NCBI GenBank assembly: GCA_964562405.1 | Contig: CAZLTC010000001.1 | Location: forward strand, 252 to 64,251 | DNA from: an uncultured bacterium | Lineage (GTDB): Bacteria > Joyebacterota > Joyebacteria > Joyebacterales > Joyebacteraceae | Direction: 5' to 3' | Length of the DNA: 64,000 nucleotides | Part shown: one piece after another, positions 4,932 through 28,212 of the stretch | Position numbering within the stretch: position 1 is the stretch's first letter | How the letters are laid out: every line of letters starts with the position of its first letter | Notes under the pieces: generated by a model | The model's database searches: none | Told to the model about the DNA's origin: nothing | What the model saw: only the letters and a program-made list of their open reading frames with translations | Program-made: the position numbers and the translations under genes

Positions 4932-4986
4932 AGCGGCGCCTTTGGGCGCTCCGAACCGCTTCCTTCGAACACCGCGGAGGCATCCC

Positions 4987-6888: not shown

Positions 6889-6974
6889 CACGGCCGGCGC
6901 CGGTGGTTCGAGGCGGCAGCCGCCACGCGACAGGGCCCCGGCTGAGGGGGTGGTCCTGGGCCGCTGGAGGTCGG

Positions 6975-13408: not shown

Positions 13409-13651
13409 GCGCCGGGGGCGGCCGGCCAAGGGCTCGCGGCGACCATCGGTCGCCGTGGCGGCAGGTCGAGGGGCGGTTCGTACGGCGGCCGAAGTCGGTC
13501 GGCGTTCAACCACCGGTCAGGCGGGGCGGTCAAAACATACTGCAGGACTCACCGAACATCGGTCGGACTTTCACTGAATGGACTGGGCGCGAATCCCCGT
13601 GAGCCGCGCGTGGGAGCGGAGGGGACGTTGCGCCACACCAAGGGGGGAGCG

Positions 13652-16600
13652 ATGACAAGAGGCAAGGGTGTGCTGTCTTGCATTCTGGTGGCACTCGCGT
13701 TCGTAACGACCGCCGCACAGGCGGTAGAGCCGCATGCCGGGATGCTTCGGTATCCCGACATCAGCGCGACGCAGATCGCCTTCCGCTACGCCAATGACCT
13801 CTGGGTCGTGTCGAGAGAGGGAGGTACCGCGGTCCCGCTCTCGAGCCCGGCCGGAGGCGAGAGCTTCCCCAGGTTCAGTCCGGACGGGCGCACGATCGTG
13901 TTCATGGCGAGCTACGACGGTGTTCGCGACCTCTACACGCTTCCCGTCGAGGGAGGCGTTCCCGAGAGGATCACGCATCATCCCTCGCAGGAGCTTCCGT
14001 GCGACTGGACTCCTGACGGTGACGAGATCGTCTTCTACGTCTACGGCATGGGTGACAACCCGCACGCCTACCAGCTCTACAAGGTGGCGGCCGAGGGTGG
14101 ACTACCCGAAAAGCTGCCGGTGCCCTACGGCACGAACGGAACCATAAGCTCCGACGGCCAGTGGCTCGCCTACACGCCGTTCAGCACCGACTTCTCCACG
14201 TGGAAGCGCTACATGGGAGGCCGCGCTCCGGACATCTGGCTCTTCAATCTCAAGGACCACACCTCCCGCAAGATCACTGACTGGAAGGGCGCCGACACGA
14301 TACCAATGTGGCACGGCGACAAGGTCTACTACCTTTCCGACGGCGGTCCCCACCACCTGCTCAACATATGGGTCTACGACCTCGCGACCGGCCAGCGCAG
14401 GCAGGTCACATCGCACACCGACGTCGACGTGAAGTTCCCGTCGGTGGGCCCGGGCGACCGCGGCCAGGGCGAGATCATCTACCAGCTCGGCCCCGAGCTT
14501 CGCGTCCTCGACCTCGCGACGGAGAAGTCGCGTGTCGTGCGCGTGACCATCCCCGGCGACAGGCCGCGCATCAGGCCGCAGTTGGTCGACGCGTCGGAGT
14601 TCATCGACGAGGGCGACGTGTCGAAGACCGGCAAGCGAGCGGTCGTTTCCGCGCGTGGTGATATCTGGACGCTTCCCGCGGAGAACGGCTCTCCTGTGAA
14701 CATGACCCGCACGGACGGGGTTGCCGAGCGCGATCCGTCGTGGAGCCCCGACGGCAAGTGGATAGCGTACTTCTCGGACGAGACGGGCGAGTACGAGCTC
14801 TACATCAACCAGTCGGACGGAGCCGGCGAGACGAAGAAGGTCACCTCCGACAAGCTCGGATTCATGTTCGCCCCGGTCTGGTCGCCCGACTCCAAGAAGA
14901 TCGCCTTCAAGGACCAGCGAGGCGCCGTCTACATCCACGACATCGACGGCGGCGGGAGCAAGAAGATCTACCAGAGCCAGTCGGGCTCGTGGAGCTTCCG
15001 AACGAACTGGTCGTCCGACTCGAACTGGTTGACCTTCGCGGACTCGGAGTCTCCCAGGAGTCAGTCGGCGGTGTGGCTGTACGACGTCGCCAACGACGAG
15101 ATTCAGCGCGTGACCAGCGGCATGTTCGCCGTCACGTGGCCGACGTTCGACCGCGAGGGCAAATACCTGTTCTTCGCGAGCAACACGGACTTCGAGAACC
15201 CGGTCTACGACGACGTCGGCGAGAACTGGTCGTATCCTCAGACCGACCAGCTGTACGTCGTGACGCTCCAGGACACGACCAAGTCGCCGTTCCTCCCCGA
15301 GGTCGACGAGGAGACCTGGGACGACGAGGACGCGGACGGGGCGGACGAGGCCAAGGCGGATGAGGGCGACGACGACGGGGAAGGCGAGGACGCGGACAAG
15401 GACGCCGACGAGGACGAGGAGGAGCCGATCAGGATCGACCTCGACGGTCTCGAGGCCCGCGCGATTGCTCTTCCCGTCGACCGCGGCGCGTTCTTTAACC
15501 TCGAGGTGAACGCCGACGGCAAGCTGCTCTACGTGAGGCGCTCGGGCGAGTCGCGCGGAGGCGGCACGAGCATTTATCTGGCCGACCTCGACGACGAGGA
15601 CGAGATGGAGAAGGAGGTCCTGTCGGGCGCGGGCAGCTTCGCGATGTCGGCTGACGGCAACAAGATCCTCGCCGCCGACGGCCCGCGCATGGCCATCGTC
15701 GACGCCGCTGCCGATCAGAGCTGGGATAAAGCGCTGTCAACCGCGGGAATGACCGTAGAGATCTCGCCACGGAACGAGTGGGCCCAGATACTCCGCGACG
15801 CGTGGCGCATTCATCGCGACTTCTTCTACGCTCCGAACATGCACGGCGTCGACTGGGACAGGGTCTACCGCAAGTACGAGGCGATGCTCCCCGACTGCGC
15901 CTCCAGGGCCGATCTCTCGTACATCATCGGCGAGATGATAGGAGAGCTGAACGTAGGGCACGCCTACTACTTCGGCGGCGACTACGAGGAGGCTCCGACC
16001 GTGAGTGTCGGGGTCCTGGGGTGCGACTTCGAGATGGGCGACGGAGCCTACCGCATATCGAGGATCTACGAGGGTGGCGCCTGGGACGCAGACGCGCGCG
16101 GACCACTCTCCGAAGACGGCGTGGACGTCTCCGTGGGCGACTATCTGCTAGCCGTGAACGGCGTTCCGCTCGATCCCAAGATGGACCCGTGGGCTGCCTT
16201 CCAGGGGCTCGCCGGGAGCACCGTGACCCTCACGGTGAGCGCCGGTCCCAAGATCGACGATGATGCGAGGTCCGTGGTCGTCGATTTGCTCGGCAGCGAT
16301 CGCGACCTGCGATATCGGGCCTGGGTCGAGGGCCGCAGGGCCTACGTCGACGAGAAGACGGACGGTCGCGTCGGCTACATCTACGTTCCCGACACCGGCG
16401 TCAACGGGCAGAACGAGCTGGTCCGCCAGTTCGGCGGGCAGCTCGAGAAGAGCGCCCTCATCGTCGACGAGAGGTGGAATGGCGGCGGGCAGATCCCGAC
16501 GCGATTCGTCGAACTCCTGAACAGGTCGGTCGCGAGCTACTGGACGATGAGGTACATAGACGGCGTGGTTCCCACTCCCGAGTACTCCATCTACGGTCCC

Positions 16601-16996
16601 AAGTGCATGCTCATAAACGAGTCGGCGGGCTCCGGCGGCGACTACTTCCCGTACTGGTTCAGGGAGGCCGGCGTCGGCAAGCTCGTCGGAACGCGCACCT
16701 GGGGCGGCCTTGTCGGGCTGTCCGGCAACCCCGGGCTCATCGACGGGGGATACGTGAGCGTCCCGAGGTTCGCGTTCGTCAACAAGGACGGCACGTGGGG
16801 CATCGAGGGCCACGGCGTCGACCCGGACATCGAGGTGGTGGACGACCCGGCGCTCATGTGGAACGGTGGAGACCCACAGCTCGACGCCGCCATCGATCTG
16901 ATGCTCAGCGAACTCAAGACGGGAGGCTACAAGCCCCCGAAGAAGCCTGACTACCCGGACAGAAGCGGTATGGGCATAAGGCCGGAGGACTACTAG
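13652..16996 (+). CDS. secreted tricorn-protease homologue (beta-propellers + PDZ + S41 C-terminal peptidase)
   Basis: Signal peptide MTRGKGVLSCILVALAFVTTAAQA. TolB-like propeller repeats (SPDGRTIVF, SPDGKWIAY, SPDSKKIAF). C-terminal S41 catalytic region (VDERWNGGGQ). Contains a ~43-aa D/E-rich insert. Confidence 0.8.
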   Translation: MTRGKGVLSCILVALAFVTTAAQAVEPHAGMLRYPDISATQIAFRYANDLWVVSREGGTAVPLSSPAGGESFPRFSPDGRTIVFMASYDGVRDLYTLPVEGGVPERITHHPSQELPCDWTPDGDEIVFYVYGMGDNPHAYQLYKVAAEGGLPEKLPVPYGTNGTISSDGQWLAYTPFSTDFSTWKRYMGGRAPDIWLFNLKDHTSRKITDWKGADTIPMWHGDKVYYLSDGGPHHLLNIWVYDLATGQRRQVTSHTDVDVKFPSVGPGDRGQGEIIYQLGPELRVLDLATEKSRVVRVTIPGDRPRIRPQLVDASEFIDEGDVSKTGKRAVVSARGDIWTLPAENGSPVNMTRTDGVAERDPSWSPDGKWIAYFSDETGEYELYINQSDGAGETKKVTSDKLGFMFAPVWSPDSKKIAFKDQRGAVYIHDIDGGGSKKIYQSQSGSWSFRTNWSSDSNWLTFADSESPRSQSAVWLYDVANDEIQRVTSGMFAVTWPTFDREGKYLFFASNTDFENPVYDDVGENWSYPQTDQLYVVTLQDTTKSPFLPEVDEETWDDEDADGADEAKADEGDDDGEGEDADKDADEDEEEPIRIDLDGLEARAIALPVDRGAFFNLEVNADGKLLYVRRSGESRGGGTSIYLADLDDEDEMEKEVLSGAGSFAMSADGNKILAADGPRMAIVDAAADQSWDKALSTAGMTVEISPRNEWAQILRDAWRIHRDFFYAPNMHGVDWDRVYRKYEAMLPDCASRADLSYIIGEMIGELNVGHAYYFGGDYEEAPTVSVGVLGCDFEMGDGAYRISRIYEGGAWDADARGPLSEDGVDVSVGDYLLAVNGVPLDPKMDPWAAFQGLAGSTVTLTVSAGPKIDDDARSVVVDLLGSDRDLRYRAWVEGRRAYVDEKTDGRVGYIYVPDTGVNGQNELVRQFGGQLEKSALIVDERWNGGGQIPTRFVELLNRSVASYWTMRYIDGVVPTPEYSIYGPKCMLINESAGSGGDYFPYWFREAGVGKLVGTRTWGGLVGLSGNPGLIDGGYVSVPRFAFVNKDGTWGIEGHGVDPDIEVVDDPALMWNGGDPQLDAAIDLMLSELKTGGYKPPKKPDYPDRSGMGIRPEDY

Positions 16997-17279
16997 CAGA
17001 GAGCCGCGTGCCGCCCGCGCCCTACCGAGGCGTCGGTTGCTGAGGCGAGGCGACAACAAGCGCTCGACGCACGACGTACGCGCCGGATCCCACGAGTCCG
17101 GCACCCCCTGGCGCCCGCGCGGCTTGACAGCCCGCGGGCGCCGGTCCATCGATACCTTCCTCGCCCTCGGGCTGTTGCCGCGACCCCCCTCTTCCTGCTA
17201 AGCTTACGAGGCTGCGAGAGTTTCGCTCCCGCGGAGCCTTGGTGTTCCGGCCACGCCACGTCACAGAAGGAGCCAGCTG

Positions 17280-18035
17280 ATGGCAGTTGATCTCGAGAAG
17301 TTGCTGAGGCCGGTCGACAGGCCCATGCCCCCGTTCCCGCCCAAACACATGACACTGGCCAGCGGCGATGACATGGTCATCCGGCAGGTGGGCCGCGACG
17401 ACATTCCGAGGCTGCTGTCGTTCGTCGCTCCGCTCATGTATGTCGAGCGCGACTACTACGACTGCGTTGCCGCCCGGGTCTACTCTGAGCTTCTGGCCTA
17501 CTACCGCCACAGGGTACAGGATGAGTACGTGCTGGTCGCGCAGATAGGCGGCGAGCTGTGCGCCATCGTGAACGGGCGCATGGTCAACGAGAGGGTGGGG
17601 ATGTCGCTGCACACGCTAGCGCTCCGCAGGGGACTCAGGATCGGGGCGCACGCGTTCGCGACGAAGATGGAGTACCACATCGACATTCTCGGACAGGATG
17701 AGGTGCTGGTGGTGGCCGAGTCGCCCATCGGCTTTCGCAGGTGGATGATCGAGTATAACCTCGAGGAGCGTTTCGATGTTCCGCACGAGCTGGGCGGCGT
17801 CCCGTCGTACGCGCTCACGCGGGAGCTGTTCGATAGGGCCCGAGGCACGCTTGTGATCGGCAGGCGCCCGGTTCCTGAGGACCTCATGGCGAAGGCGATG
17901 GAGGACATCCTTCCGCCGTCCGATCCGCCCAGGCCTCCCGAGGATCTGATGGCGGCAACGCGCTCGAAGTACGACCCGACGGGAACGGCTCTCTTGCTCC
18001 AGAGGTGGGTGCAGGAAGAGAAGGTGAAGCAATGA
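17280..18035 (+). CDS. hypothetical protein, possibly GNAT-fold acyltransferase
   Basis: 251 aa with an AAGGAG RBS. An R-x-x-G-x-G/A-like motif (LRRGLRIGAHA) suggests a GNAT fold. First gene of a 10-gene overlapping operon. Confidence 0.5.
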   Translation: MAVDLEKLLRPVDRPMPPFPPKHMTLASGDDMVIRQVGRDDIPRLLSFVAPLMYVERDYYDCVAARVYSELLAYYRHRVQDEYVLVAQIGGELCAIVNGRMVNERVGMSLHTLALRRGLRIGAHAFATKMEYHIDILGQDEVLVVAESPIGFRRWMIEYNLEERFDVPHELGGVPSYALTRELFDRARGTLVIGRRPVPEDLMAKAMEDILPPSDPPRPPEDLMAATRSKYDPTGTALLLQRWVQEEKVKQ

Positions 18036-19204
18036 GAGACGTATACGTCGCCGGCATCGGCATAACCTCGTTCACGAGGCTCGAATACCCGCTCTCGGAG
18101 ATTGCGGCCTACCCGGTCATGATGGCCATCAAGGACTCCGGCCTGCGGAACATAGACCACCTGTACGTGGCTAACATGGGGAGCGGCAGGGTCAATCACC
18201 AGACGGGGCTTGCGAGCGCGGTCGTCGACACGCTGAGTCTCACCCCATCGGGTGCGGAGCTCATCGAGAACGGTCCCGCCTCAGGCGGCTCGGCGGTGAA
18301 GCAGGGCTTCATGGCCGTCGCATCAGGAATGCATGACGTCGTCGCGGTGACCGGCGCCGAGCGCATGCGTGAGGTCAACAACCTCGAGGCCACTGACTTC
18401 GTGGCCACGCTCACGCACCCGATAGCCGAGTACATCTACGGAGTCACTCTCCCGTCGCTCGCGGCCATGTTCACGCGCATGTACATGGACAAGTACGGCG
18501 TTACCGGACGGCACCTCGCGATGGTTTCGGTCAAGAACCAGCGCCACGCGCTCCGCAACAAGTTCGCGCACATCCAGCAGGAGATCAGCGTCGAGGGTAT
18601 CCTCGACTCGCCGGAGGCCATGACGAACAACCCGTACGTCTCCGATCCACTGCGGTTCTTCGACTGCTGCCCCGTCTCTGACGGGGGCGCGGCGGTCATA
18701 CTCACCACCCGGGAGGTGGCGGAGGCGACGGGCAGGCCTCTAGTGCGGCTCGCGGGAGTCGGGCAGGCGACCGACACCCACTGCGTGCACGAGCGGGAGG
18801 ACCCGACCGACCTGCTGGCCGTCAGGCGTGCCGCGGCCGGCGCGATGAAGATGGCCGGAGTGAAGCCGTCCGACGTCGACGTGGCCGAACTTCACGACGC
18901 GTTCACGATCCTCGAGATCGTCGAGAGCGAGGAAGCGGGCTTCTTCCCGAAGGGCGAGGGGCATCTCGCGCTGGAACGAGGCGAGACCGAGCTTGGCGGG
19001 AAGCTGCCGATCAACGTGTCCGGAGGCCTCAAGGGCCGTGGGCATCCGGTCGGTGCGACCGGTGTCGCGCAGGTCTACGAGATCGTGCACCAGCTGCGGG
19101 GCGAAGCGGAGGACCGCCAGGTCGAGGGCGCGCGCGTCGGGTTCACCTGCAACTTCGGAGGGTTCGGCAACAACGTCGTCTGCATGGTGCTGAAGAAGGA
19201 GTAG
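18032..19204 (+). CDS. thiolase-like protein (SCP-x / nonspecific lipid-transfer thiolase type)
   Basis: Thiolase fold with N-terminal VYVAGIGITSF and C-terminal GHPVGATG...NFGGFG. ATGA overlap with the upstream gene. Confidence 0.8.
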   Translation: MRDVYVAGIGITSFTRLEYPLSEIAAYPVMMAIKDSGLRNIDHLYVANMGSGRVNHQTGLASAVVDTLSLTPSGAELIENGPASGGSAVKQGFMAVASGMHDVVAVTGAERMREVNNLEATDFVATLTHPIAEYIYGVTLPSLAAMFTRMYMDKYGVTGRHLAMVSVKNQRHALRNKFAHIQQEISVEGILDSPEAMTNNPYVSDPLRFFDCCPVSDGGAAVILTTREVAEATGRPLVRLAGVGQATDTHCVHEREDPTDLLAVRRAAAGAMKMAGVKPSDVDVAELHDAFTILEIVESEEAGFFPKGEGHLALERGETELGGKLPINVSGGLKGRGHPVGATGVAQVYEIVHQLRGEAEDRQVEGARVGFTCNFGGFGNNVVCMVLKKE

Positions 19205-19287
19205 GGCGTCGCCGGCGCCGGACGGGAGCGGTCCGGGCGCCATCCCCGGCCCGCGTGGCCGGCGCGATTCCACCAGGAGATGTGGAC

Positions 19288-19635
19288 ATGAGCAGAGAGA
19301 TCTACGCATACAGGTGCAAGAGATGTGGCGAACTGCACTATCCGTACAGGATGGTCTGCAAGAAGTGCCACGAGAACGACCACAACGAGTTCGATCCGGA
19401 GCCACTTCCGAAGACCGGGACGCTCGTCACGTTCACGGAGCTGTACTCGCTGCCGGCCGTCTTCGAGGTGCGCAAGCTGGGGTTGGGCATCGTCGAACTC
19501 TCCAACGGCATACGCATCACGGGACAGCTGCGCATAGACGAGCCGAAGGCCGGGATGAAGGTGCGGGGCGAGGTTGAGGTCGTCAGGAGCGAGACCTACG
19601 AGGACTTCCACGGCATGGTCTTCTACGAGGCGTGA
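19288..19635 (+). CDS. DUF35 zinc-ribbon / OB-fold protein (thiolase partner)
   Basis: CxxC...CxxC rubredoxin-like ribbon (CKRCGELHYPYRMVCKKC), then an OB-fold. Typical partner of SCP-x-type thiolases. Confidence 0.75.
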   Translation: MSREIYAYRCKRCGELHYPYRMVCKKCHENDHNEFDPEPLPKTGTLVTFTELYSLPAVFEVRKLGLGIVELSNGIRITGQLRIDEPKAGMKVRGEVEVVRSETYEDFHGMVFYEA

Positions 19636-19642
19636 GGGGCAA

Positions 19643-20590
19643 TTGGCGGAGCACGAGCGTGCCATCCGACTGCTGAGACGCGGCGATCTCGTCGCGGATG
19701 GAACCTACCGTGTCCACTCGCGCTTCAGGCGAGCGGTCAACCTCAGTGACGGGCGCAGAGTGCTCTCGGTCGTCGCGGCGGGCGTAGACGCCGGGCCCGC
19801 GACCCTGGTCGTGGATCGCCTCCACGCAGGCTCGCCCGAGACCGTCCACGTCGCCGGCTCGTCGGTTACGATCGACGGCCTCCCTGTCGCTACCACGGAT
19901 GCCGCGTCCTACGATTCCACCTTCTATGTCAGAGCGGCCGACGCTCGTGTCGTTCGCCGCAATCTGAGTGTCCTCTCTTTGCTCATCGCCGAGCGCGCGC
20001 CGGTCGAGAGCCTGGCCTTCCTGCTCAATCCCGGGAGGGTCGAGCTTCTACGTCCGGGCTTCGAGCGCACCTACGCGCGCCACATGAGCCACTGCGCACG
20101 CGACATCTTTCACGGCGACATGCTGCGCGGAGTCGAGCGGGCCAGGGGCTGCGGCTTCGGGCTCACTCCGTCCGGTGACGACCTGATGGTCGGCATCCTG
20201 GTAGCGATGCGGTTTCTGGAGCAGACCGGCGGACGAGACCTCTCCGAGGTGAGGGCCGACGTCGAGCGCACGGCACGCACCGGCAGCCTGCTGGGTGATT
20301 CGTTCCTGGCGTTCGCCGCCCGCGGAAGGGTCTGCGAGAGCATGAGGTCGCTCGTGACCGCACTCGCCCTCGGCTCGTCGGGAGACGTGGCGTCCGCGTT
20401 CGACAGGATCTCCAGCGTCGGGGCGACGTCGGGTGTGGATGCCGCCTCCGGGCTCTGCCTGGGCGTCGGCGCGGGTGCCAACGGCTGGCCTCGCACCGGC
20501 CGCGCATCATTCGGTCGGGCCGCCGCGGGCGCCGAACCGGTTCCAGGCGATGTTCGCGCGCCGGGAGAGGGGAGTATCCTGTGGTCCTAG
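19643..20590 (+). CDS. DUF2877 protein (YlbF/AllH-like)
   Basis: ~316 aa from an in-frame TTG at 19643; the track ORF opens at 19574. Lies adjacent to FdrA and DUF1116 genes, as in the E. coli fdrA-ylbE-ylbF cluster. Confidence 0.55.
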   Translation: MAEHERAIRLLRRGDLVADGTYRVHSRFRRAVNLSDGRRVLSVVAAGVDAGPATLVVDRLHAGSPETVHVAGSSVTIDGLPVATTDAASYDSTFYVRAADARVVRRNLSVLSLLIAERAPVESLAFLLNPGRVELLRPGFERTYARHMSHCARDIFHGDMLRGVERARGCGFGLTPSGDDLMVGILVAMRFLEQTGGRDLSEVRADVERTARTGSLLGDSFLAFAARGRVCESMRSLVTALALGSSGDVASAFDRISSVGATSGVDAASGLCLGVGAGANGWPRTGRASFGRAAAGAEPVPGDVRAPGEGSILWS

Positions 20591-22116
20591 AGTGCAGGAT
20601 CAGGAAAGGCGCGTACTTCGACTCGGTCACCCTCATGAACGTCGGGCGCGAGCTGTCCGTCATGGACGGCGTCGACGACGCGGCGATCGTCATGGGCACC
20701 GATGAGAACAAGAACATACTTCGCGCCTCCCGCCTGCTGACCCCGAAGCTCGAAAGCGCCGTCGGCAGCGATCTCCTGATCGCGGTCCGGGCGTCGGACG
20801 CGGCCTCGGCAGCGGCCGCGCTCGCGGCGGTCGACGCGCTCCTGACGCGCGACAGAAGCGCGGTCGGGGACTCGTCGGCACGCGAGCCGCGCAGCCTCGG
20901 CGGCGCGCTCGACGTCGTTCCGGAGGCGAACCTCGCGCTCATATCGGTCGCGGGACGCTATGCCGGCGCCGTGGCCGATGAGGCGCTCGACCGCGGTCTT
21001 CACGTCATGCTCTTCTCGGACAACGTGGCGCTGGAGACGGAGGTCGCCCTCAAGAGGAAGGCCCACGAGAAGGGCCTTCTCGTGATGGGACCCGACTGCG
21101 GCACGGCCATCGTGAACGGCGCGCCGCTCGGGTTCGCCAACGCCGTGTCCCGCGGCCCGGTGGGCATAGTTGCCGCATCCGGCACGGGTCTCCAGGAGGT
21201 CAGCTGCCTGCTCTCAAACGACGGAGTGGGCATTTCGCAGGCGCTCGGGACGGGCAGCAGGGACGTGAACGATGCCGTGGGCGGCGTCACGTTCCAGGAC
21301 GCGCTGCGCGCGCTCGGTGACGACCCGGAGACGGAGGTCATCGTGCTCGTATCCAAGCCACCCGACCCGGGTGTCCATGCGGCCGTGCGCGAGGCGGCTG
21401 CGAAGCTCGGCAAGCCGGTCGTGTCCGTGTTCCTCGGGGCGGAGCCGACCGGTGCGATGGACGCCTGGACGCTGGCCGGGGCGGCCGTCAAGGCGGCGGC
21501 TGTCGTTAGAGGCGAGCCCGTCGAGGACACGCTCGCGTTCGGTCCTATGGACGACGCGCTTCGCGAGTTTGCCGACGACATCGCCTCGGCCAGGAGTGCG
21601 GGGCAGAGGTATCTGAGAGCGCTCATGAGCGGCGGCACGTTCGCTTCCGAGGCCGTGCTGCTACTGGGGCGGATCGGGGTGCCTGACGTGCACGCGAATG
21701 TCTCCGGCAAGCGCGCCGCGAGACTGAGTGACCCGCTCGCGAGCATCGCGAACACGGTCGTCGACATGGGCGCCGACGAGTTCACGGTCGGCCGCCCGCA
21801 CCCCATGATCGACTATTCGCTGAGGCGCAAGCGGCTTGCCGCGGAGTCGAAGGATCCCGAGGTGGCGGTCGTGCTGCTCGACGTGGTTCTGGGCTACGGC
21901 GCCAACCCGGATCCGGCCTCCGAGCTGGAAAACGCGGTCAGGGATGCTTCGTCGCGCGTCGCCGTCGTCTGCTCGATAACGGGAACCGAGCGCGACCCGC
22001 AGGTCCGGAGCGTCGTCGAGAGGCGACTGAGGCGGGCCGGTGCGGTCGTAATGCCTTCCAACGAGGCGGCATGCAGGCTCGCGGGCGAGACCGTACGCAC
22101 GCTGGGAGAACGCTGA
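20581..22116 (+). CDS. FdrA-family protein (succinyl-CoA-synthetase-alpha-like CoA-binding / ligase-CoA domains; AllF-like)
   Basis: N-terminus MVLECRIRKGAYFDSVTLM parallels E. coli FdrA (MIHAFIKKGCFQDSVSLM). GTG start overlapping the upstream gene. Confidence 0.75.
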   Translation: MVLECRIRKGAYFDSVTLMNVGRELSVMDGVDDAAIVMGTDENKNILRASRLLTPKLESAVGSDLLIAVRASDAASAAAALAAVDALLTRDRSAVGDSSAREPRSLGGALDVVPEANLALISVAGRYAGAVADEALDRGLHVMLFSDNVALETEVALKRKAHEKGLLVMGPDCGTAIVNGAPLGFANAVSRGPVGIVAASGTGLQEVSCLLSNDGVGISQALGTGSRDVNDAVGGVTFQDALRALGDDPETEVIVLVSKPPDPGVHAAVREAAAKLGKPVVSVFLGAEPTGAMDAWTLAGAAVKAAAVVRGEPVEDTLAFGPMDDALREFADDIASARSAGQRYLRALMSGGTFASEAVLLLGRIGVPDVHANVSGKRAARLSDPLASIANTVVDMGADEFTVGRPHPMIDYSLRRKRLAAESKDPEVAVVLLDVVLGYGANPDPASELENAVRDASSRVAVVCSITGTERDPQVRSVVERRLRRAGAVVMPSNEAACRLAGETVRTLGER

Positions 22117-23519
22117 TGTCGGCAGGTGAGCTGTTCAGGACGGAACTCAAGGTCGTGAACGTGGGCCTCCGGTCGTTCAGGGATAGCCTCGATTCGGCGG
22201 GCACGGTCGCCGTGCAGGTGGACTGGCAGCCGCCGATGGACGTCTCCGCCGAGTCGATGCGCGTGCTGGCCGGGCGCTCTTCCGTCATCGACGAGGCGAA
22301 CGCGAGGGCGGTCGACATGCTGCTGCGCGCGGCACCGGCCCTCGTGGGGATGGGGACGGCGTTCGACGCCATACCGGGCATGCGCCGCGACCTCTTCCTG
22401 CACGCCGGCCCTCCGGTCACATGGGAGCGTATGTGCGGACCCATGCGCGGCGCGGTCATGGGGGGTATCATCTACGAGGGGCTTGCCGACACTCCGGAAG
22501 CCGCGGAGGAACTGGCAGCGTCCGGTGCGATAGAATTCGAGCCGTGCCACGAGCACAGCGCCGTCGGTCCGATGGCGGGCATCGTGACGCCGTCGATGCC
22601 GGTCTTCGTGATACGGAACACGGAGTTCGGGAACGAGGCCTTCTGCACCATGAACGAGGGGCTCGGGAAGGTCCTGCGCTACGGCGCGTTCGCGCCCGAG
22701 GTCATCGAGCGACTGAACTGGATGCGCGACGTCCTCTACCCGGTCCTCCACCGCGCGATCGCGACCGCCGGTCCCATCGACCTGAAGAACCTGATCGCGC
22801 AGGCGCTCCACATGGGTGACGAGGTCCACAACCGGAACCGCGCGGCGACGTCGCTCCTCTACCGGGCGCTCGCGCCCGCTATCGTCTCGACGTGCGACGA
22901 TCGCGCGGCCGCCGCGCGGGTGCTCGGCTTCATCAACGGGAACGACCACTTCTTCCTCAACCTGTCGATGCCGGCCTGCAAGGCATCGCTCGACCCGGCA
23001 CGCGGCATCGAGGGCTCGAGCCTCGTCGTCGCGATGACGAGGAACGGGACCGACTTCGGCGTGCAGCTCTCCGGCACCGGCGACGAGTGGTTCACGGGTC
23101 CCGCCGACGTGCCGGACGCGCTCTTCTTCCCGGGATATACGAGGGAGGACGCCAACCCGGACATCGGTGACAGCTCGATCACCGAGACCGCGGGACTCGG
23201 AGGGTTCGCGATCGCGGCATCGCCCGCCATCGTCCAGTTCGTCGGCGGGACGACGTCAGACGCCATCAACTACACGCTCGAGATGTACGAGATCACGACG
23301 GCCGAGAACGACGCGTACCAGGTGCCGTACCTCGACTTCCGGGGGACTCCGACGGGCATCGACGTGGTGAAGGTCGTGACGAAGAACATACTGCCGTTCA
23401 TAGACACGGGCGTGGCGCACCGGGACCCCGGCGTGGGGCAGGTCGGGGCGGGAGTGCTCCGGGCCTCGGCGCAGCCGTTCCTCAGGGCATTCGAGGGGCT
23501 CGCCGCCAGACTGGGGTGA
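22116..23519 (+). CDS. DUF1116 protein (YlbE/AllG-like)
   Basis: 468 aa. ATGA overlap with the fdrA-like stop. Family is invariably paired with FdrA. Confidence 0.65.
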   Translation: MSAGELFRTELKVVNVGLRSFRDSLDSAGTVAVQVDWQPPMDVSAESMRVLAGRSSVIDEANARAVDMLLRAAPALVGMGTAFDAIPGMRRDLFLHAGPPVTWERMCGPMRGAVMGGIIYEGLADTPEAAEELAASGAIEFEPCHEHSAVGPMAGIVTPSMPVFVIRNTEFGNEAFCTMNEGLGKVLRYGAFAPEVIERLNWMRDVLYPVLHRAIATAGPIDLKNLIAQALHMGDEVHNRNRAATSLLYRALAPAIVSTCDDRAAAARVLGFINGNDHFFLNLSMPACKASLDPARGIEGSSLVVAMTRNGTDFGVQLSGTGDEWFTGPADVPDALFFPGYTREDANPDIGDSSITETAGLGGFAIAASPAIVQFVGGTTSDAINYTLEMYEITTAENDAYQVPYLDFRGTPTGIDVVKVVTKNILPFIDTGVAHRDPGVGQVGAGVLRASAQPFLRAFEGLAARLG

Positions 23520-23544
23520 GAGCCGGACGATCAGGAGGTGGCAC

Positions 23545-24363
23545 TTGAACATCGACAAGTTCCTGGCATTCATGAACGATGTAAAGCTCTACGACTTGAC
23601 ACAGCGGCTCTCGATACACACGCCGCCCTGGCCCAGCTACATGCCGATGGGGCTCCAGTACTTCAAGCGCATCGCCGGCGCGCACATGGGGCAGGGTGCC
23701 AACGGGCAGATCATGACGACCTCCAACCACGTCGGCACGCACATGGACGGGGAGATCCACTTCCATGCGAGCGGACGCGCCATCGGCCAGGTCCCGCTCG
23801 AGGAGTGGGTCGGCCCGGGCGTCGTGGTCGACATCTCGGACGCCGTGGAGGACTACGGCCTCTACTCGCCGGCCATGATCGAGGAGCGCGTCGCCGTCAA
23901 GCCGGGCGACATTCTCATAATCAACACGGGCTACCACAAGTACGCGTGGGACCAGAAGGGCTCGGATGAGATGCGCTACTTCGTGAAGCACCCGGGTCCG
24001 GACCCCGACTTCCACAAGTGGGCGATCAAGATGAAGCTCAAGTGGATCGGGGTGGACTGCGGAAGCGCCGACCACCCAATGAACACGATCATCCGCGACT
24101 GGCATCCCGGTCTGTTCGAGAAAGCGGAGGCAAAGCTCACGCGCGACTACGGCAAGGTATGGGACGAGATGTTCCCGCCCGAAACGTACTACCAGGTCAT
24201 GCACCTCAAGCTCTTCCCGAAGAAGATCGTCCACGCCGAGAACCTCGGTGGCGACATAGACAAGCTCGGGAGCAGGCGATGCTGGATCGGGTGCTTCCCG
24301 CTGCGAGGCATCGAGCTGGAATCGTCGATGTGCCGCATCGTGGCGATGCTGCCGCCGGAGTGA
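23545..24363 (+). CDS. cyclase-family hydrolase (kynurenine formamidase / isatin hydrolase type)
   Basis: Metal-binding signature HVGTHMDGEIHFH (HxGTHxDxxxH). AGGAGG RBS with a TTG start. Confidence 0.75.
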   Translation: MNIDKFLAFMNDVKLYDLTQRLSIHTPPWPSYMPMGLQYFKRIAGAHMGQGANGQIMTTSNHVGTHMDGEIHFHASGRAIGQVPLEEWVGPGVVVDISDAVEDYGLYSPAMIEERVAVKPGDILIINTGYHKYAWDQKGSDEMRYFVKHPGPDPDFHKWAIKMKLKWIGVDCGSADHPMNTIIRDWHPGLFEKAEAKLTRDYGKVWDEMFPPETYYQVMHLKLFPKKIVHAENLGGDIDKLGSRRCWIGCFPLRGIELESSMCRIVAMLPPE

Positions 24364-24372
24364 GGAGCCAGC

Positions 24373-25263
24373 ATGTCGATATCGCACGAGTTCGACTACG
24401 TACGACCTGACACGCTGGACGAGGCCGTAGCGGCGCTCGGCCGGGCAGGCGATGGAGCGGCCGTCCTCGCGGGAGGCACCGACCTCGTGGCGTGGCTCAG
24501 GGATGGAGTGGCGAGGCCGTCCCTGGTCGTAGACCTCAAGGGCGTTCCTGGGCTCGCCGAGATCGCGGTGTCTGGTGGCGTTCTGTCAGTGGGCTCGTTG
24601 GTGACGTTCGCCGACCTCATCGATTCGGCAGCCGTCGCGGACGCGCTTCCGGTGCTGTGCGAGATGGCGCGCGTGATGGGCTCGACGGGCATACGCAACC
24701 GCGCGACCGTCGCCGGGAACATCTGCTCCGGCGTCCCTTCGTGCGACAGCGGTCCCGTCCTGCTCGTGTGCGACGCCACGGTCAGCGTCGTGGGTCCGGG
24801 TGGAGCGCGCGACGTGCCCGTTTCCGACTGGTTCAAGGGACCGAAGAAGACGGCGCTCAAGGCCGGCGAGATCGTGACGCGCATCGCGATTCCGCTTCCC
24901 GAGAACGGACACGGAGCCTGCTATGTCAAGCTCAGGCGCAACCGCGGCGAGGATCTGGCGCAGGCCGGCGTAGCCGTCATGGCGCTGCCCGATCGGAGCT
25001 ACCGTGTCGCCTTCGGAGCCGTCGCACCGACACCCGTGAGGGCGCCGCGCATCGAGGCGCTCCTCTCGGGGCGCGGGGTGGACGACGCCGTCATCGAAGA
25101 GGCAAAGATGCTCGTGTCCGAGGAGACCGCGCCGATCTGCGACATCAGAGCGAGTCGAGAATACCGGGAGCACATGCTGCCGGTGATGCTCGAGCGGGCG
25201 CTGCGCGCGGCCGCGTCGCGTCTCGCGGGAGCCGGCCCCGTGTACGGGGAGCCGCTCATCTAG
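24373..25263 (+). CDS. xanthine-dehydrogenase-family FAD-binding subunit (CoxM/XdhB-like)
   Basis: FAD_binding_5 N-terminus (AVLAGGTDLVAWLRDG) and CO-dehydrogenase-flavoprotein C-terminal domain. Confidence 0.85.
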   Translation: MSISHEFDYVRPDTLDEAVAALGRAGDGAAVLAGGTDLVAWLRDGVARPSLVVDLKGVPGLAEIAVSGGVLSVGSLVTFADLIDSAAVADALPVLCEMARVMGSTGIRNRATVAGNICSGVPSCDSGPVLLVCDATVSVVGPGGARDVPVSDWFKGPKKTALKAGEIVTRIAIPLPENGHGACYVKLRRNRGEDLAQAGVAVMALPDRSYRVAFGAVAPTPVRAPRIEALLSGRGVDDAVIEEAKMLVSEETAPICDIRASREYREHMLPVMLERALRAAASRLAGAGPVYGEPLI

Positions 25264-25350
25264 ACGGACCGGAAGGGTCGGCGCGTCTCGCGCCGAGGGC
25301 GTCAATCTCTCGCCGTGCCGGCATCACATGCTCTGTCAGGGAGCACTCGA

Positions 25351-25830
25351 ATGACTCGACAGATCACGCTCAACGTCAACGGCGAGGAGTGGACCATCTC
25401 CGTCGCCCCGAACGAGACGCTCCTCGAGGCGCTGCGCGACCGCATAGGCATCAAGAGCCCGAAGATCGGGTGCGAGCGAGGCGACTGCGGAAGCTGCACG
25501 GTCATCCTGGACGGGAAGACCGTGAGGTCGTGTCTCGTTCTCGCCGTCGAGGCCGACGGTCGCGGCGTCCTGACCGTGGAGGGGCTCTCGAAGGACGGGC
25601 TCACCGACCTCCAGAAGGCGTTCATCGACGGCAACTCGTTCCAGTGCGGGTTCTGCGCGCCGGGCGTCATCCTGACCGCCTCGGAGCTCCTGGCGAAGAA
25701 CCCCGAGCCGACCGAGCTGGAGGTCAGGGAGGCGCTCTCCGGGAACCTCTGTCGCTGCACCGGCTATACGCCGATCATCGACGCGGTCCTCGCGGTGGGC
25801 AAGCGGGGAGGAGGACGGAGCGATGGCTGA
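25351..25830 (+). CDS. xanthine-dehydrogenase-family (2Fe-2S)-binding small subunit (CoxS-like)
   Basis: Plant-type and second 2Fe-2S motifs (GCERGDCGSCTVILDG, CGFCAPG, CRCTGY). Confidence 0.9.
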   Translation: MTRQITLNVNGEEWTISVAPNETLLEALRDRIGIKSPKIGCERGDCGSCTVILDGKTVRSCLVLAVEADGRGVLTVEGLSKDGLTDLQKAFIDGNSFQCGFCAPGVILTASELLAKNPEPTELEVREALSGNLCRCTGYTPIIDAVLAVGKRGGGRSDG

Positions 25831-28201
25831 ACGCAAGCACGTGAGCGCGTCCGCTTCTGGTCTCAAGTACGTTGGCTCCTCCGCCACGCGCATCGACGGA
25901 CTGCCCAAGGTCTCGGGCAGCGCCACGTTCGTCGACGACATCGACTTCGGACCGGGCCTGCTTCACGCGGTCATCGTGGAGAGCCCACACGCCCACGCGA
26001 GCATCGTCTCCATCGATAAGTCGGCCGCCGAGGCCGTGCCCGGTGTCGTCCGCGTCGTGACGGGAGAGGACTTCCCATACAGGTTCGGCCTCTACATGAA
26101 GGACCGGCACATCTTCGCGATGGACAGGGTCAGGTTCGTCGGAGAGCAGGTGGCCGCCGTCATCGCGCGCGACCTCAAGACGGCGCAGCGGGCCGCCGAA
26201 CTCGTGCGCGTGGAGTACGAGGAGCTGCCGGCGCTGTTCGATCCGATGGAAGCTGTAGCCGAGGGGTCGTGCCTCCTGCATCCGGACATGTGCGACTGCG
26301 AGCGCGTCCCGTGGTTCTTCCCCGAGCCCGACACGAACGTCGCGCACTGCAGGCGCACGCGGAAGGGCGACGTCCAGGGGGGCTTCGAGGAGGCCGACAT
26401 CGTACTCGAGGACACTTACACGGTGCCGCGCTATGCGCACTGCGCCATAGAGCCGCACGTGGTAGTGGGGCTTCACGACCACTCGGGACGACTCACGCTC
26501 TGGTCGGCGTCGCAGTCACCACACACGCAGCGCAACCTCTTCGCCGAGACGCTCGCGCCGCTCGGGCTCACGCACAAGGACATCAGGGTGGTGACGCCCT
26601 ATGTCGGAGGCGGGTTCGGAGGGAAGGCCGGCGTCACGATGGAGATCATAGGCGCCGCGCTCGCCACCGCGGTCAAGGGTCGGCCGGTCAAGCTGCGCTG
26701 GACGCGCGAGCAGGAGTTCTACAATACCTACCAGCGCCAGGCTGTCGTGGCGAAGCTCAAGATCGGGGCGAAGAAGGACGGTACCCTCACGGCCATCGAG
26801 CACACGCTCTACTGGGACGCCGGGGCCTACGTCGAGTACGGCGCGAACGTGGTGAACGCCGTCGGCCTCTCTGCCACAGGACCGTACCGCATCCCGAACG
26901 TGAAGATCGACTCGTACTGCATCTACACGAACCTGCCGCCCGGCGGGCCGTATCGCGGGTTCGGTTACTCGGAGTTCCACTTCGGGCTCGAGTCGCACAT
27001 GACCCGGCTTGCTCAGGAGCTGGGGCTTGACCCGGTCGAGTTTCGCAAGAGGAACGCGATTCGCGAAGGCGACACGCTTGCCTACGGCGCGAAGATGAAC
27101 CCGAGTGGGCTCCTGGAGGCCATCGACAGGGCGGCGGCCGCCATCGGCTGGGGCGAGAGCACCGAGCCGTCGGGACCGGGCAAGCTCGTCGGCAAGGGTT
27201 TCTCGCTCATGTGGAAGGCGCCGGCCATGCCACCGAACGCGGCCTCGGCCGCGTTCCTCAAGTTCAGCGAGGACGGGAGCATCAACATCACCGTCTCGGG
27301 CATGGAGATCGGGCAGGGCTATCTCACGGCGATGGCTCAGATTGCCGCGGAGGTTCTGTCCGTTCCCACGGAGAAGATCCGCGTCGAGACGCCCGACACC
27401 GACCGCAACCCGTACGAGTGGCAGACCGTGGGGTCGCACGTGACGTGGGGGTGCGGCAACGCCGTGAAGGATGCGGCGATCGAGGCGCGCGAGAGGATCT
27501 TCGACGTCGTGAACAGGGGCAAGGGTCTTCCCGTCGACGCGCTCTACCTCGAGGATGAGAGGGTGAAGAGCCGTCTGGACCCCGACTTCGAGCTTCCGCT
27601 TCGCGACTTCGTCATCTACGGCATCCAGATGGCGGACGGCACCTTCCGCGGCGGCCCCATCATGGGAAGCGGGATGTTCATGCCGGAGTTCACGTCGGCC
27701 CTGTCCGACCCGGCGACGAGCCAGGGCGGACACCCGAACGTGCACTACACCGTCGGGGCGGCTGGCGTCGTGCTCGAGATCGACCGCCAGACCGGCAAGA
27801 TGGACGTCCTCAGGACGGCGCTCGCCGTCGACGTCGGCAAGGCCATAAACCCCGACCTCGTGGAGGGACAGATAACGGGTGGGCTCCTGCAGGGTCTCGC
27901 AACGGTGCTCTACGAGGACATGCGGTTCGACGAGAAGGGGAGGATGCTGAACCCCAACTTCACCGACTACAAGATACCCACCACGATGGACACCCCGAGG
28001 GAGACGATACCCATCATCGTCGAGGTCCCGCAGCCCGACGGCCCGTTCGGCGCGCGCGGCGTGGGGGAGCACACGATGATCCCCGCTGCACCCATGGTCG
28101 CCAACGCGGTCGCGGACGCTACGGGCATACGCCTCAAGTCGATGCCCATCACCGCGGAGAAGGTCGCCCTGGCGATCGCTGAACGCGAGCGGAATCGATA
28201 G
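25823..28201 (+). CDS. xanthine-dehydrogenase-family molybdopterin-binding large subunit
   Basis: 792 aa with Ald_Xan_dh_C/C2 domains and typical blocks (GGGFGGK, GQGxxT, GEHTMIPAAP). Confidence 0.9.
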   Translation: MAERKHVSASASGLKYVGSSATRIDGLPKVSGSATFVDDIDFGPGLLHAVIVESPHAHASIVSIDKSAAEAVPGVVRVVTGEDFPYRFGLYMKDRHIFAMDRVRFVGEQVAAVIARDLKTAQRAAELVRVEYEELPALFDPMEAVAEGSCLLHPDMCDCERVPWFFPEPDTNVAHCRRTRKGDVQGGFEEADIVLEDTYTVPRYAHCAIEPHVVVGLHDHSGRLTLWSASQSPHTQRNLFAETLAPLGLTHKDIRVVTPYVGGGFGGKAGVTMEIIGAALATAVKGRPVKLRWTREQEFYNTYQRQAVVAKLKIGAKKDGTLTAIEHTLYWDAGAYVEYGANVVNAVGLSATGPYRIPNVKIDSYCIYTNLPPGGPYRGFGYSEFHFGLESHMTRLAQELGLDPVEFRKRNAIREGDTLAYGAKMNPSGLLEAIDRAAAAIGWGESTEPSGPGKLVGKGFSLMWKAPAMPPNAASAAFLKFSEDGSINITVSGMEIGQGYLTAMAQIAAEVLSVPTEKIRVETPDTDRNPYEWQTVGSHVTWGCGNAVKDAAIEARERIFDVVNRGKGLPVDALYLEDERVKSRLDPDFELPLRDFVIYGIQMADGTFRGGPIMGSGMFMPEFTSALSDPATSQGGHPNVHYTVGAAGVVLEIDRQTGKMDVLRTALAVDVGKAINPDLVEGQITGGLLQGLATVLYEDMRFDEKGRMLNPNFTDYKIPTTMDTPRETIPIIVEVPQPDGPFGARGVGEHTMIPAAPMVANAVADATGIRLKSMPITAEKVALAIAERERNR

Positions 28202-28212
28202 CGCCGCGCTGC

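Follow-up and report, generated by a model that had tools for sequence, protein, structure and literature searches.

The best-described relative of the system discussed here is the AllFGH complex of Escherichia coli, which reversibly converts oxalurate and phosphate into carbamoyl phosphate and oxamate and does not need CoA. It is the sole characterised member of its family, and the paper describing it offers docking only, with no catalytic residues defined experimentally. A homologous trio of genes, encoding a DUF2877 (AllH-like), an FdrA and a DUF1116 (AllG-like) protein, lies at 19643-23519 of the 64-kb stretch of DNA analysed here (the window), which comes from an uncultured bacterium of the Joyebacterota. 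The other pathway that bears on this trio, oxidative pyrimidine breakdown, has been known since the 1950s, and to our knowledge no gene has so far been assigned to its first step. The established route runs from the pyrimidine through barbiturate and 3-oxo-3-ureidopropanoate to malonate and urea (PMC3758960). From its gene context, we propose that the window trio is not an allantoin enzyme but cleaves an N-acylurea within a conserved operon (17280-28201) that breaks down a pyrimidine-like N-heterocycle, a reading to which we give a probability of about 0.45. We found no description in the literature of this cluster, of the 251-aa protein family at its start, or of YahEFG function.

A gene cluster conserved across phyla

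The main point, which was absent from the first-pass annotation of this DNA, is a cluster of 7-10 genes conserved over many phyla. The sample took one genome per GTDB species and comprises 80 loci, their AllG proteins sharing 63-80% identity with the window AllG; presence was counted by tblastn with the ten operon proteins, ORF (open reading frame) calling being crude in high-GC loci. At least ten phyla are represented. Eisenbacteria are closest (80%), and the others include Elusimicrobiota, Verrucomicrobiota/Kiritimatiellia, Cloacimonadota, Ignavibacteria/Chlorobiota, Bacteroidales, Acidobacteriota, Bdellovibrionota, Spirochaetota, Zixibacteria and Planctomycetota. Carriers of the cluster include the metagenome-assembled genomes GCA_016930695.1 and WJLY01. 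The seven-gene core consists of the trio, a cyclase-family hydrolase and the three subunits of a molybdenum hydroxylase (CoxM, CoxS and CoxL). The cyclase is present in 64/80 loci (44 of the 48 that reach at least 15 kb) and CoxL in 50/80, and a further module of a protein of predicted GNAT fold, a thiolase-like protein and a DUF35 protein occurs in 23/80, in three arrangements.

Gene arrangement varies between lineages: the cyclase-Cox block lies 5' of the trio in Elusimicrobiota, the thiolase module lies 3' of CoxL in some Cloacimonadota, and the two halves of the cluster are convergent on one 4.3-Mb contig. The linkage is kept through at least four such arrangements, which argues for a functional unit; together with its persistence over at least ten phyla, this led us to reject chance adjacency. 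Four long loci lack the cyclase (L022, L031, L040 and L077), and Pfam annotation of the neighbours in L031, L040 and L077 gave unrelated housekeeping genes and no alternative context.

Two lineage-specific neighbours were also observed. In one lineage (L084, 5722-9787; L085, 803-2316), genes for a PstSCAB-like ABC transporter (PBP_like_2, two BPD_transp_1 and ABC_tran components) and for an Rrf2-family regulator stand upstream of the cluster in divergent orientation, perhaps by chance or perhaps because one step consumes phosphate by phosphorolysis. Three Elusimicrobiota loci (L057, L059 and L079) carry an ORF of about 194 aa directly 5' of the cyclase-Cox block, with a Cys-rich end and an N-terminal half that looks PAS-like by eye, and its product might serve the cluster as a sensor or regulator.

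Place of the trio in the AllFGH/YahEFG family

Pfam, NCBIfam and BLASTP all bear out the initial reading of 19643-23519 as a DUF2877/FdrA/DUF1116 trio. The NCBIfam model PRK06091 ("acyl-CoA synthetase FdrA") matches the window FdrA with 455.6 bits against a cutoff of 433. BLASTP searches of the E. coli K-12 proteins put FdrA at 38% identity with AllF (E 1e-103) and 39% with YahF; the window AllG is 45% identical to AllG (E 3e-130; 372 bits) and 45% to YahG over its full length (425 bits); and the window AllH is 30% identical to AllH in the C-terminal half only (E 3e-10) and 25% to YahE. With these E values the similarity to all three AllFGH subunits is significant. On a neighbour-joining tree, unbootstrapped and thus without support values, the window clade stands apart from both AllFGH and YahEFG. 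To judge from these comparisons, the trio is not an AllFGH orthologue; it makes up a third clade of paralogues, as far from AllFGH as from YahEFG. The suggestion that it is an oxamate carbamoyltransferase (OXTCase) homologue acting on another ureido compound survives in part: the homology stands and the conserved neighbours favour some other ureide as substrate, but the third clade speaks against orthology. The gene order, first taken as unusually permuted, differs from that of allFGH only; E. coli itself has it in yahE-yahF-yahG.

FdrA consists of an HMA-like N-domain, succinyl-CoA-synthetase-alpha-like domains and a Ligase_CoA domain. Alignment with E. coli SucD shows that the motifs GPDCG, ASGTG and GTG[SG]RD are common to AllF, YahF and the window FdrA, and GRPHPMID is kept too. 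In the same alignment the column of the SucD phosphohistidine (GHAGA) is gapped or variable in the window FdrA, AllF, YahF and their orthologues, and Pfam detects no ATP-grasp subunit or domain in the operon. The missing phosphohistidine and the lack of an ATP-grasp partner disfavour the broader, CoA-dependent activity that had been considered for the trio at first.

At 511 aa the window FdrA is of the Yah type, without the C-terminal tail of about 45 aa found in AllF. Residues 513-539 of that tail align to residues 28-54 of the window AllG, and the same segment forms the N-terminus of YahG. A segment of about 45-60 aa thus shifts between subunits, from the C-terminus of AllF to the N-terminus of YahG and the window AllG (window 22071-22300; L081 12200-12348; L083 18321-18512). 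On the 4.3-Mb contig of L083 it is apparently a separate 63-aa ORF, going by gene sizes and position and not by alignment. Fused FdrA-AllG proteins (about 1000 aa) are present in the representative library too, as are others (about 800 aa) that carry some 320 extra N-terminal residues (P0123-P0144), a length that would fit a candidate AllH domain.

AllH is the fastest-evolving subunit, with 24-50% identity among cluster orthologues. Its G-x-G-x-G-[L]-T-P-x-G-D-D motif is invariant apart from the near-invariant L, and its S-G-x-D motif is invariant with a variable preceding residue; the AlphaFold2 model (predicted local distance difference test, pLDDT, 90) gave no fold match in the PDB. The AllG subunit, 64-80% identical among orthologues across phyla, has a solved homologue, 3CLQ (E 4e-130), deposited as an "uncharacterized protein", and belongs to a DUF1116 family of about 760 clusters at 50% identity (E <= 1e-30). 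The likely start of the window AllG is the ATG at 22116, to judge from its TGATG overlap with the FdrA stop, a GGGAGA ribosome-binding site and a length of 467 aa as in the orthologues.

The cyclase and the molybdenum hydroxylase

The genes that follow the trio were described from the outset as a cyclase-family hydrolase and a molybdenum hydroxylase, and both assignments hold: the first matches PF04199, and three molybdenum hydroxylase subunits occupy 24373-28201. The cyclase is 72-87% identical across phyla, an unusually high value, as are those for CoxL and the thiolase-like protein given below, and stands directly 3' of AllG in most loci. The HxGTHxDxxxH motif for metal binding is preserved (NHVGTHMDGEIHF in the alignment with KynB), and we propose that the protein acts as a ring-opening hydrolase.

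The molybdenum enzyme has the complete architecture of the xanthine dehydrogenase family (molybdenum cofactor, FAD and two [2Fe-2S] clusters), with the GGGFGGK loop and the catalytic Glu (GVGEHT) of CoxL conserved. CoxL orthologues are 68-86% identical across phyla. The nearest solved relative of CoxL is the alpha subunit of 4-hydroxybenzoyl-CoA reductase (4-HBCR; 1rm6) with 351 bits, the next best reaching 276. Every NCBIfam equivalog model scores under its cutoff: 519 bits against a cutoff of 995 for CoxL with the 4-HBCR alpha model, and 142 against 405 for CoxM with the beta model, whose match is split in two pieces, indicating that CoxM lacks the extra Fe-S insertion. A 4-HBCR identity was rejected on these grounds, both subunits falling below cutoff and the beta subunit lacking the insertion.

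The upstream module of predicted GNAT-fold, thiolase-like and DUF35 proteins

The operon begins at 17280, and three more co-transcribed genes precede the trio. The first encodes a 251-aa protein with 2229 homologues, all called "hypothetical" wherever the source names them; the members listed are 75-100% identical (P0001-P0120). Its AlphaFold2 model has a pLDDT of 73, and the top 50 Foldseek matches in the PDB are all GNAT acetyltransferases (E about 1e-4, template modelling score 0.45-0.59). An invariant RRGLRIGAH lies at the beta4-alpha3 junction, where the loop reads RRGLRIGA and not the canonical R/Q-x-x-G-x-G/A. The family is accordingly predicted from the model to have a divergent GNAT (acyl-CoA N-acyltransferase) fold. 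The gene is always trailed by those of the thiolase-like and DUF35 proteins, and the DUF35 gene is always 3' of the thiolase-like one.

The closest structures to the thiolase-like protein are archaeal acetoacetyl-CoA thiolases (7yvy, 273 bits; 6esq/6et9), and BbsB and PhlC match as well. The catalytic EAACASGG has become ENGPASG[GAS] in the window and in 21/21 orthologues checked, and the GHP histidine is kept. Because the nucleophilic Cys is replaced, the protein is not a thiolase in the strict sense and would not carry out thiolysis. Its identity is 73-92% in most phyla and 49-57% in the rearranged modules of Cloacimonadota and Spirochaetota. Among known enzymes, some malonyl-CoA decarboxylases have a GNAT fold, and ketosynthases without the Cys work as malonyl decarboxylases; DUF35 proteins act as scaffolds along which intermediates are channelled between a thiolase-fold enzyme and its partner. 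By analogy, the module could plausibly be a malonyl-thioester-processing complex.

Accessory genes and a sister clade

ORF clustering and NCBIfam models show which other genes accompany the cluster. Three unrelated amidase families have been recruited, lineage by lineage: an amidase-signature (AS) family enzyme in 13/80 loci, with an unnamed amidase, AtzE and allophanate hydrolase as best models; a nitrilase-superfamily C-N hydrolase in 13/80, all Elusimicrobiota, placed between CoxL and AllH in the six with a called ORF; and an isochorismatase-family hydrolase in 2/80 (Bdellovibrionota). Family-III CoA-transferases occur in 7/80 loci and in the related loci L091 and L093, with CoA:oxalate, succinate-glutarate and mesaconate transferases as best models; the best NCBIfam model of the Cloacimonadota enzyme is CoA:oxalate CoA-transferase (381 bits). 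The CoA-transferase and the GNAT/thiolase-like/DUF35 module never occur together (0 overlaps, 7 versus 23 loci that are not phylogenetically independent), which is only suggestive of alternative solutions for one step. NCS2 permeases are found in 6/80 loci and score 352-382 bits as uracil permease or RutG against about 213 as xanthine permease. The Cloacimonadota permease, for example, reaches 352 bits as uracil permease and 214 as pbuX, and the Acidobacteriota one 382 as RutG.

In a sister clade, whose AllG is 51-58% identical to that of the window, the trio is again linked to the cyclase and the AllG-cyclase adjacency is kept. One strand of L091 carries a non-orthologous CoxL (of the CO dehydrogenase "group 5" type, 30% identity), CoxG/M/S and AllH; the other carries FdrA, AllG, cyclase, a family-III CoA-transferase with succinate-glutarate as best model, and, in this single sister-clade locus, an AccD/AccA fusion of the carboxyltransferase type (352 bits with the AccA model, cutoff 357). 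An AS amidase adjoins AllG-cyclase in L095, and in the noisy assembly L096 an arcC-type carbamate kinase (302 bits) lies directly 5' of FdrA-AllG-AllH-cyclase. L094 belongs to a cultured aerobe, Thermorudis peleae (GCA_000744775.1, JQMP01000003.1, about 207-228 kb): AllH-FdrA-AllG is divergent from a RutG-type permease (RutG 522 bits versus pbuX 188), followed by CoxM-CoxS-CoxL-cyclase-cyclase. The CoxL proteins of this clade (L091 3617-5950; L094 6667-9054) score 992-1093 bits with the NCBIfam model CODH_aero_grp5, over its cutoff. NCBI names such proteins aerobic CO dehydrogenase large subunits; their context suggests that here they are N-heterocycle hydroxylases.

More remote contexts came to light through distant AllH relatives in the protein search. 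L087 and L088 have the order AllG, AA_kinase, FdrA, GlcD/GlcF-like, AllH, with an AllG 41% identical to that of the window; the Yah-type locus L092 (AllG 46%) includes a carbamate kinase, an amidohydrolase and a PucR regulator.

Proposed pathway and alternatives

Gene context suggests an order of steps, each of them inferred from it. Where present, the uracil/RutG-type permease would take up uracil or thymine, and the CoxLMS-type hydroxylase would hydroxylate C6 to give barbiturate (or 5-methylbarbiturate). The cyclase-family metallo-amidohydrolase would then open the ring to N-malonylurea (ureidomalonate, 3-oxo-3-ureidopropanoate). By analogy with AllFGH, which turns oxalurate and phosphate into carbamoyl phosphate and oxamate, the AllH/FdrA/AllG-like complex would convert ureidomalonate and phosphate into carbamoyl phosphate and malonamate, products that would explain the recurring amidase and the CoA activation of a dicarboxylate. 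An amidase, its family differing by lineage, would release malonate from malonamate. Malonate would be handled as a CoA thioester and decarboxylated by the family-III CoA-transferase, together with an acetyl-CoA carboxylase (ACC)-type carboxyltransferase in one sister locus; in the window the GNAT-fold/Cys-less thiolase-like/DUF35 module would take the place of the CoA-transferase.

Several features point this way. The recurrence of three unrelated amidase families, and of an AS amidase in L095, argues for an amide intermediate; the family-III CoA-transferases, one of them beside the AccD/AccA carboxyltransferase of L091, indicate a malonyl-type dicarboxylate; and NCS2 permeases in the operons of three lineages (Cloacimonadota, Acidobacteriota and T. 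peleae) suggest a pyrimidine substrate. The carbamate kinase 5' of FdrA in L096 points to carbamoyl phosphate chemistry in a cyclase-linked trio. A purine/allantoin reading was rejected: allantoin genes are missing and the permeases score far higher as uracil/RutG than as xanthine transporters. The whole operon is probably an undescribed, very widespread nucleobase catabolic pathway. It is possible, if rather doubtful, that it amounts to a complete, unrecognised and widespread oxidative pyrimidine pathway built from enzymes unrelated to those of Rhodococcus, jointly comprising a Mo-dependent uracil/thymine dehydrogenase, a cyclase-family barbiturase, a "malonamate transcarbamylase" and a malonyl-processing GNAT/Cys-less-thiolase/DUF35 complex.

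A number of observations weigh against assigning the trio to ureidomalonate cleavage. The main difficulty is carbamate kinase: tblastn with AllK, YahI and the L087 kinase found none in the 80 orthologous loci, and a kinase beside the trio is the rule outside the window's clade (AllFGH-AllK, YahEFG-YahI, L087 and L092; published nitrifier allFGHK clusters also include one). The kinase may be encoded elsewhere, or the enzyme may instead transfer the malonyl group and release urea. The window operon has neither a permease nor a recognisable amidase, pyrimidine-type permeases are limited to 6/80 loci and T. peleae, and the ACC-type carboxyltransferase and the carbamate kinase come from one sister-clade locus each, the latter in a noisy assembly. 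The CoA:oxalate model of the Cloacimonadota enzyme would fit oxalurate and oxamate equally well, and the nearest relative of CoxL, 4-HBCR, acts on CoA thioesters. We know of no cyclase-family barbiturase or Mo-dependent uracil dehydrogenase sequence for comparison, and the role given to the GNAT/thiolase-like/DUF35 module is speculation.

The kinase gap leads directly to an unlikely alternative, in which the trio transfers the malonyl half and turns N-malonylurea with phosphate or CoA into malonyl-phosphate or malonyl-CoA and urea, as an acyl-transferring enzyme like site I of succinyl-CoA synthetase and not as a transcarbamylase. FdrA does keep the CoA_binding, Succ_CoA_lig and Ligase_CoA domains and the SucD phosphate-binding motifs, and the amidase-free window operon has GNAT-fold and thiolase-like proteins that would both handle CoA thioesters. 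Against this stand the only characterised homologue, which makes carbamoyl phosphate without CoA, the cyclase-linked sister locus with a carbamate kinase, and the repeated presence of amidases (of three families) and dicarboxylate CoA-transferases, implying release of a free amide and a free acid; nor was a urease or urea carboxylase seen in the loci, in a search that was not exhaustive. Rather unlikely, too, is a true OXTCase, with the molybdenum hydroxylase and cyclase turning another heterocycle, such as a hydantoin- or imidazolone-type ring, into oxalurate via parabanate, and oxamate passing through oxalate to oxalyl-CoA. Homology to AllFGH, the amidases and the 381-bit CoA:oxalate match would suit it; the trio, however, is no nearer AllFGH than YahEFG, and the loci lack allantoin genes, an AllD-like dehydrogenase and an oxalyl-CoA decarboxylase. 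The permeases are of the uracil/RutG type, and in L091 the ACC-type carboxyltransferase fits malonyl-CoA and not oxalyl-CoA, beside a CoA-transferase whose best model is succinate-glutarate.

It is improbable that the cluster encodes an anaerobic (hetero)aromatic-acid pathway on CoA thioesters, with the trio as the "acyl-CoA synthetase FdrA" of the NCBIfam label, a 4-HBCR-like enzyme acting on aryl-CoA and the thiolase-like/DUF35 pair as a BbsAB-like C-C cleaving enzyme. That label, the 351-bit match of CoxL to 4-HBCR alpha (276 for the next best) and weak BbsA/BbsB matches are what speak for it. FdrA proteins lack the phosphohistidine and the operon an ATP-grasp partner, the CoxL score is around half the 4-HBCR cutoff, the Fe-S insertion is missing from the beta subunit, and thiolysis is impossible for a thiolase-like protein that lacks its nucleophilic Cys. 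In addition, the module is absent from 57/80 loci, the sister clade has an unrelated CoxL type, and the genes that do recur encode amidases, nucleobase permeases and dicarboxylate CoA-transferases. The permeases, the ACC-type carboxyltransferase, the Cys-less thiolase and the absence of a phosphohistidine and an ATP-grasp partner sit less well with both the OXTCase and the aromatic-acid proposals. A synthetic route to uracil is very improbable indeed. Urea would be malonylated by the GNAT protein, ring closure to barbiturate would fall to the cyclase and reductive dehydroxylation to a 4-HBCR-like enzyme, as the family name "cyclase", the reductive dehydroxylase nearest to CoxL and the aptness of a GNAT fold for N-acylation might suggest; such a scheme leaves the trio without a role and the beta subunit without its low-potential Fe-S insertion, the GNAT module is missing from most loci, and the permeases, amidases, CoA-transferases and decarboxylating-type carboxyltransferase are catabolic signatures.

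Layout of the window

The operon is tightly packed on the plus strand, as judged from ORFs supported by third-codon-position GC (GC3) in a window of about 66% GC, with a 284-bp gap upstream and a convergent gene downstream. The ATG of the thiolase-like gene overlaps the stop of the GNAT-fold gene (ATGA). No riboswitch or other RNA passed the Rfam gathering thresholds anywhere in the window, and a scan of 16900-28500 for sigma-70 promoters and terminators gave nothing above shuffled sequences. Pfam covered most GC3-supported ORFs of the window, with 61299-62366 and a few short gaps outside the scan. The ORFs scanned include no carbamate kinase, YgeW-type transcarbamylase or allantoinase, and tblastn with AllK, YahI, YahJ and the L087 kinase had zero matches in the 64 kb, in agreement with the first-pass annotation on this point. 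The allantoin-branch genes (allantoinase, AllC, AllE and AllD) are likewise missing from the scanned ORFs and from the recurrent gene families of the loci.

The remainder of the window encodes housekeeping proteins, proteases and transporters. It is rich in large secreted or processing proteases, accompanied by an inhibitor; the papain-family protease carries lectin-like and FlgD-Ig domains and matches a Por (type IX secretion system) tail below threshold only. A SelB gene indicates that the organism makes selenoproteins, three GC3-supported ORFs have no Pfam match, and the two MEP (methylerythritol phosphate) pathway genes are ordinary.

Table 1. Genes of the operon, followed by other features of the window
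Feature	Position	Strand	Domain or model match
251-aa protein of predicted GNAT fold, operon gene 1	17280..18035	+	no Pfam/NCBIfam match
SCP-x/archaeal-type thiolase-like protein without nucleophilic Cys	18032..19204	+	Pfam Thiolase_C_1, Thiolase_N
DUF35/ChsH2-type zinc-ribbon and OB-fold scaffold protein	19255..19635	+	Pfam OB_ChsH2_C, zf-ChsH2; weak NCBIfam BbsA match
AllH/YahE-like DUF2877 subunit	19643..20590 (TTG start 19643; ORF open from 19574)	+	PF11392, E 1.8e-21
FdrA/AllF/YahF-like subunit	20581..22116	+	PF02629, PF13607, PF00549 (CoA_binding, Succ_CoA_lig, Ligase_CoA); PRK06091
AllG/YahG-like DUF1116 subunit	22116..23519 (ORF open from ATG 22071)	+	PF06545, E 2.7e-102
Cyclase-family metal-dependent amidohydrolase, kynurenine-formamidase/isatin-hydrolase type	23545..24363	+	PF04199, E 1.7e-34
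FAD-binding medium subunit, Mo hydroxylase (CoxM/XdhB type)	24373..25263	+	Pfam FAD_binding_5, CO_deh_flav_C
[2Fe-2S] small subunit, Mo hydroxylase	25315..25830	+	Pfam Fer2_2, Fer2
Molybdopterin-binding large subunit, xanthine-dehydrogenase-family hydroxylase	25823..28201	+	Pfam Ald_Xan_dh_C, MoCoBD_1, MoCoBD_2
SelB selenocysteine-specific elongation factor	4942-6888		
GcpE/IspG	6903-8048		
ORF, 170 aa	9239-9751	+	no Pfam match
Tricorn-type protease	13610-16996		
Papain-family protease	28213-30678	-	
ORF, 359 aa	30926-32005	-	no Pfam match
S9 peptidase	37052-39580		
Bacterial serpin	40484-41770		
ORF, 430 aa	54704-55996	+	no Pfam match
Fused IspD-IspF	57420-58607		

Significance

The window clade gives the AllFGH/YahEFG family a second specific, testable substrate prediction. 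If it is true, the initial reaction of oxidative pyrimidine breakdown would have genes assigned to it, and a group of abundant, generically named proteins of uncultured lineages (cyclase family protein, CoxL-like protein and the 251-aa family with more than 2000 members) would be explained. If carbamoyl phosphate is made, the cluster would provide a new route of substrate-level phosphorylation from nucleobases: a malonamate transcarbamylase would let fermenters gain ATP from the ureido group, which bears on their recycling of nucleic acids. The sister version in the cultured T. peleae makes the idea directly testable.

Comparison with known systems

The window trio resembles AllFGH in its three homologous subunits (FdrA 38%, DUF1116 45% and DUF2877 30%), in the conserved FdrA motifs and in the presumed substrate class, an N-acylurea from nucleobase ring breakdown. 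It differs in gene order and in the FdrA/AllG domain boundary, and it lacks allK and the allantoin genes. Unlike AllFGH, it stands in an operon with a cyclase-family hydrolase and a molybdenum hydroxylase, and its predicted substrate is N-malonylurea instead of oxalurate. The likeness to yahE-yahF-yahG extends to order, subunit sizes and domain boundary (FdrA of about 511-515 aa; DUF1116 of about 470 aa with the N-terminal segment), with 25/39/45% identity. E. coli, however, has yahI (carbamate-kinase-like) and yahJ (amidohydrolase) 3' of these genes, neither of which was found in the window by tblastn; the window trio forms a separate clade on the neighbour-joining tree, and the uncharacterised YahEFG offers no functional anchor.

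With the Rhodococcus-type oxidative pyrimidine pathway (uracil/thymine dehydrogenase, barbiturase and ureidomalonase; PMC3758960), the window operon would share its intermediates and the logic of oxidising the ring before opening it. Unlike that pathway, it has no AtzD/"Toblerone" barbiturase by Pfam, a cyclase-family metalloenzyme standing in its place, and no AS-family ureidomalonase by Pfam; an AllFGH-type complex would split the N-acylurea, in place of its hydrolysis to urea by a ureidomalonase. The cluster is found for the most part in uncultured lineages (among them Elusimicrobiota, Cloacimonadota, Ignavibacteria, Verrucomicrobiota and Eisenbacteria), which we take to be mostly anaerobic. 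The molybdenum enzyme shares with 4-HBCR (1rm6) a three-subunit architecture of molybdenum cofactor, FAD and two [2Fe-2S] clusters, the GGGFGGK loop and the catalytic Glu; it differs in lacking the beta Fe-S insertion, and the sister clade uses a "CODH group 5" CoxL for apparently the same job. Compared with the succinyl-CoA synthetase superfamily, the window FdrA has the CoA-binding and Ligase_CoA domains and lacks the phosphohistidine.

An SCP-x-type thiolase fold beside a DUF35 protein and a third enzyme is also seen in archaeal thiolase-HMGCS-DUF35 (6esq/6et9), PhlACB (5m3k) and BbsAB (7pxp), and Ltp2-ChsH2 is a further complex of the thiolase/DUF35 type. The analogy suggests that the thiolase-like, DUF35 and GNAT genes encode a scaffolded channelling complex acting on CoA thioesters, whose reaction may be malonyl-CoA decarboxylation or transfer. 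The window protein, like non-thiolytic members, has another residue in place of the nucleophilic Cys (ENGPASG), and the third partner is a novel protein of predicted GNAT fold outside Pfam. Set against these systems, what is new here is a trio clade within the known AllFGH/YahEFG family and its conserved operon context, in a gene order already known from yahEFG.

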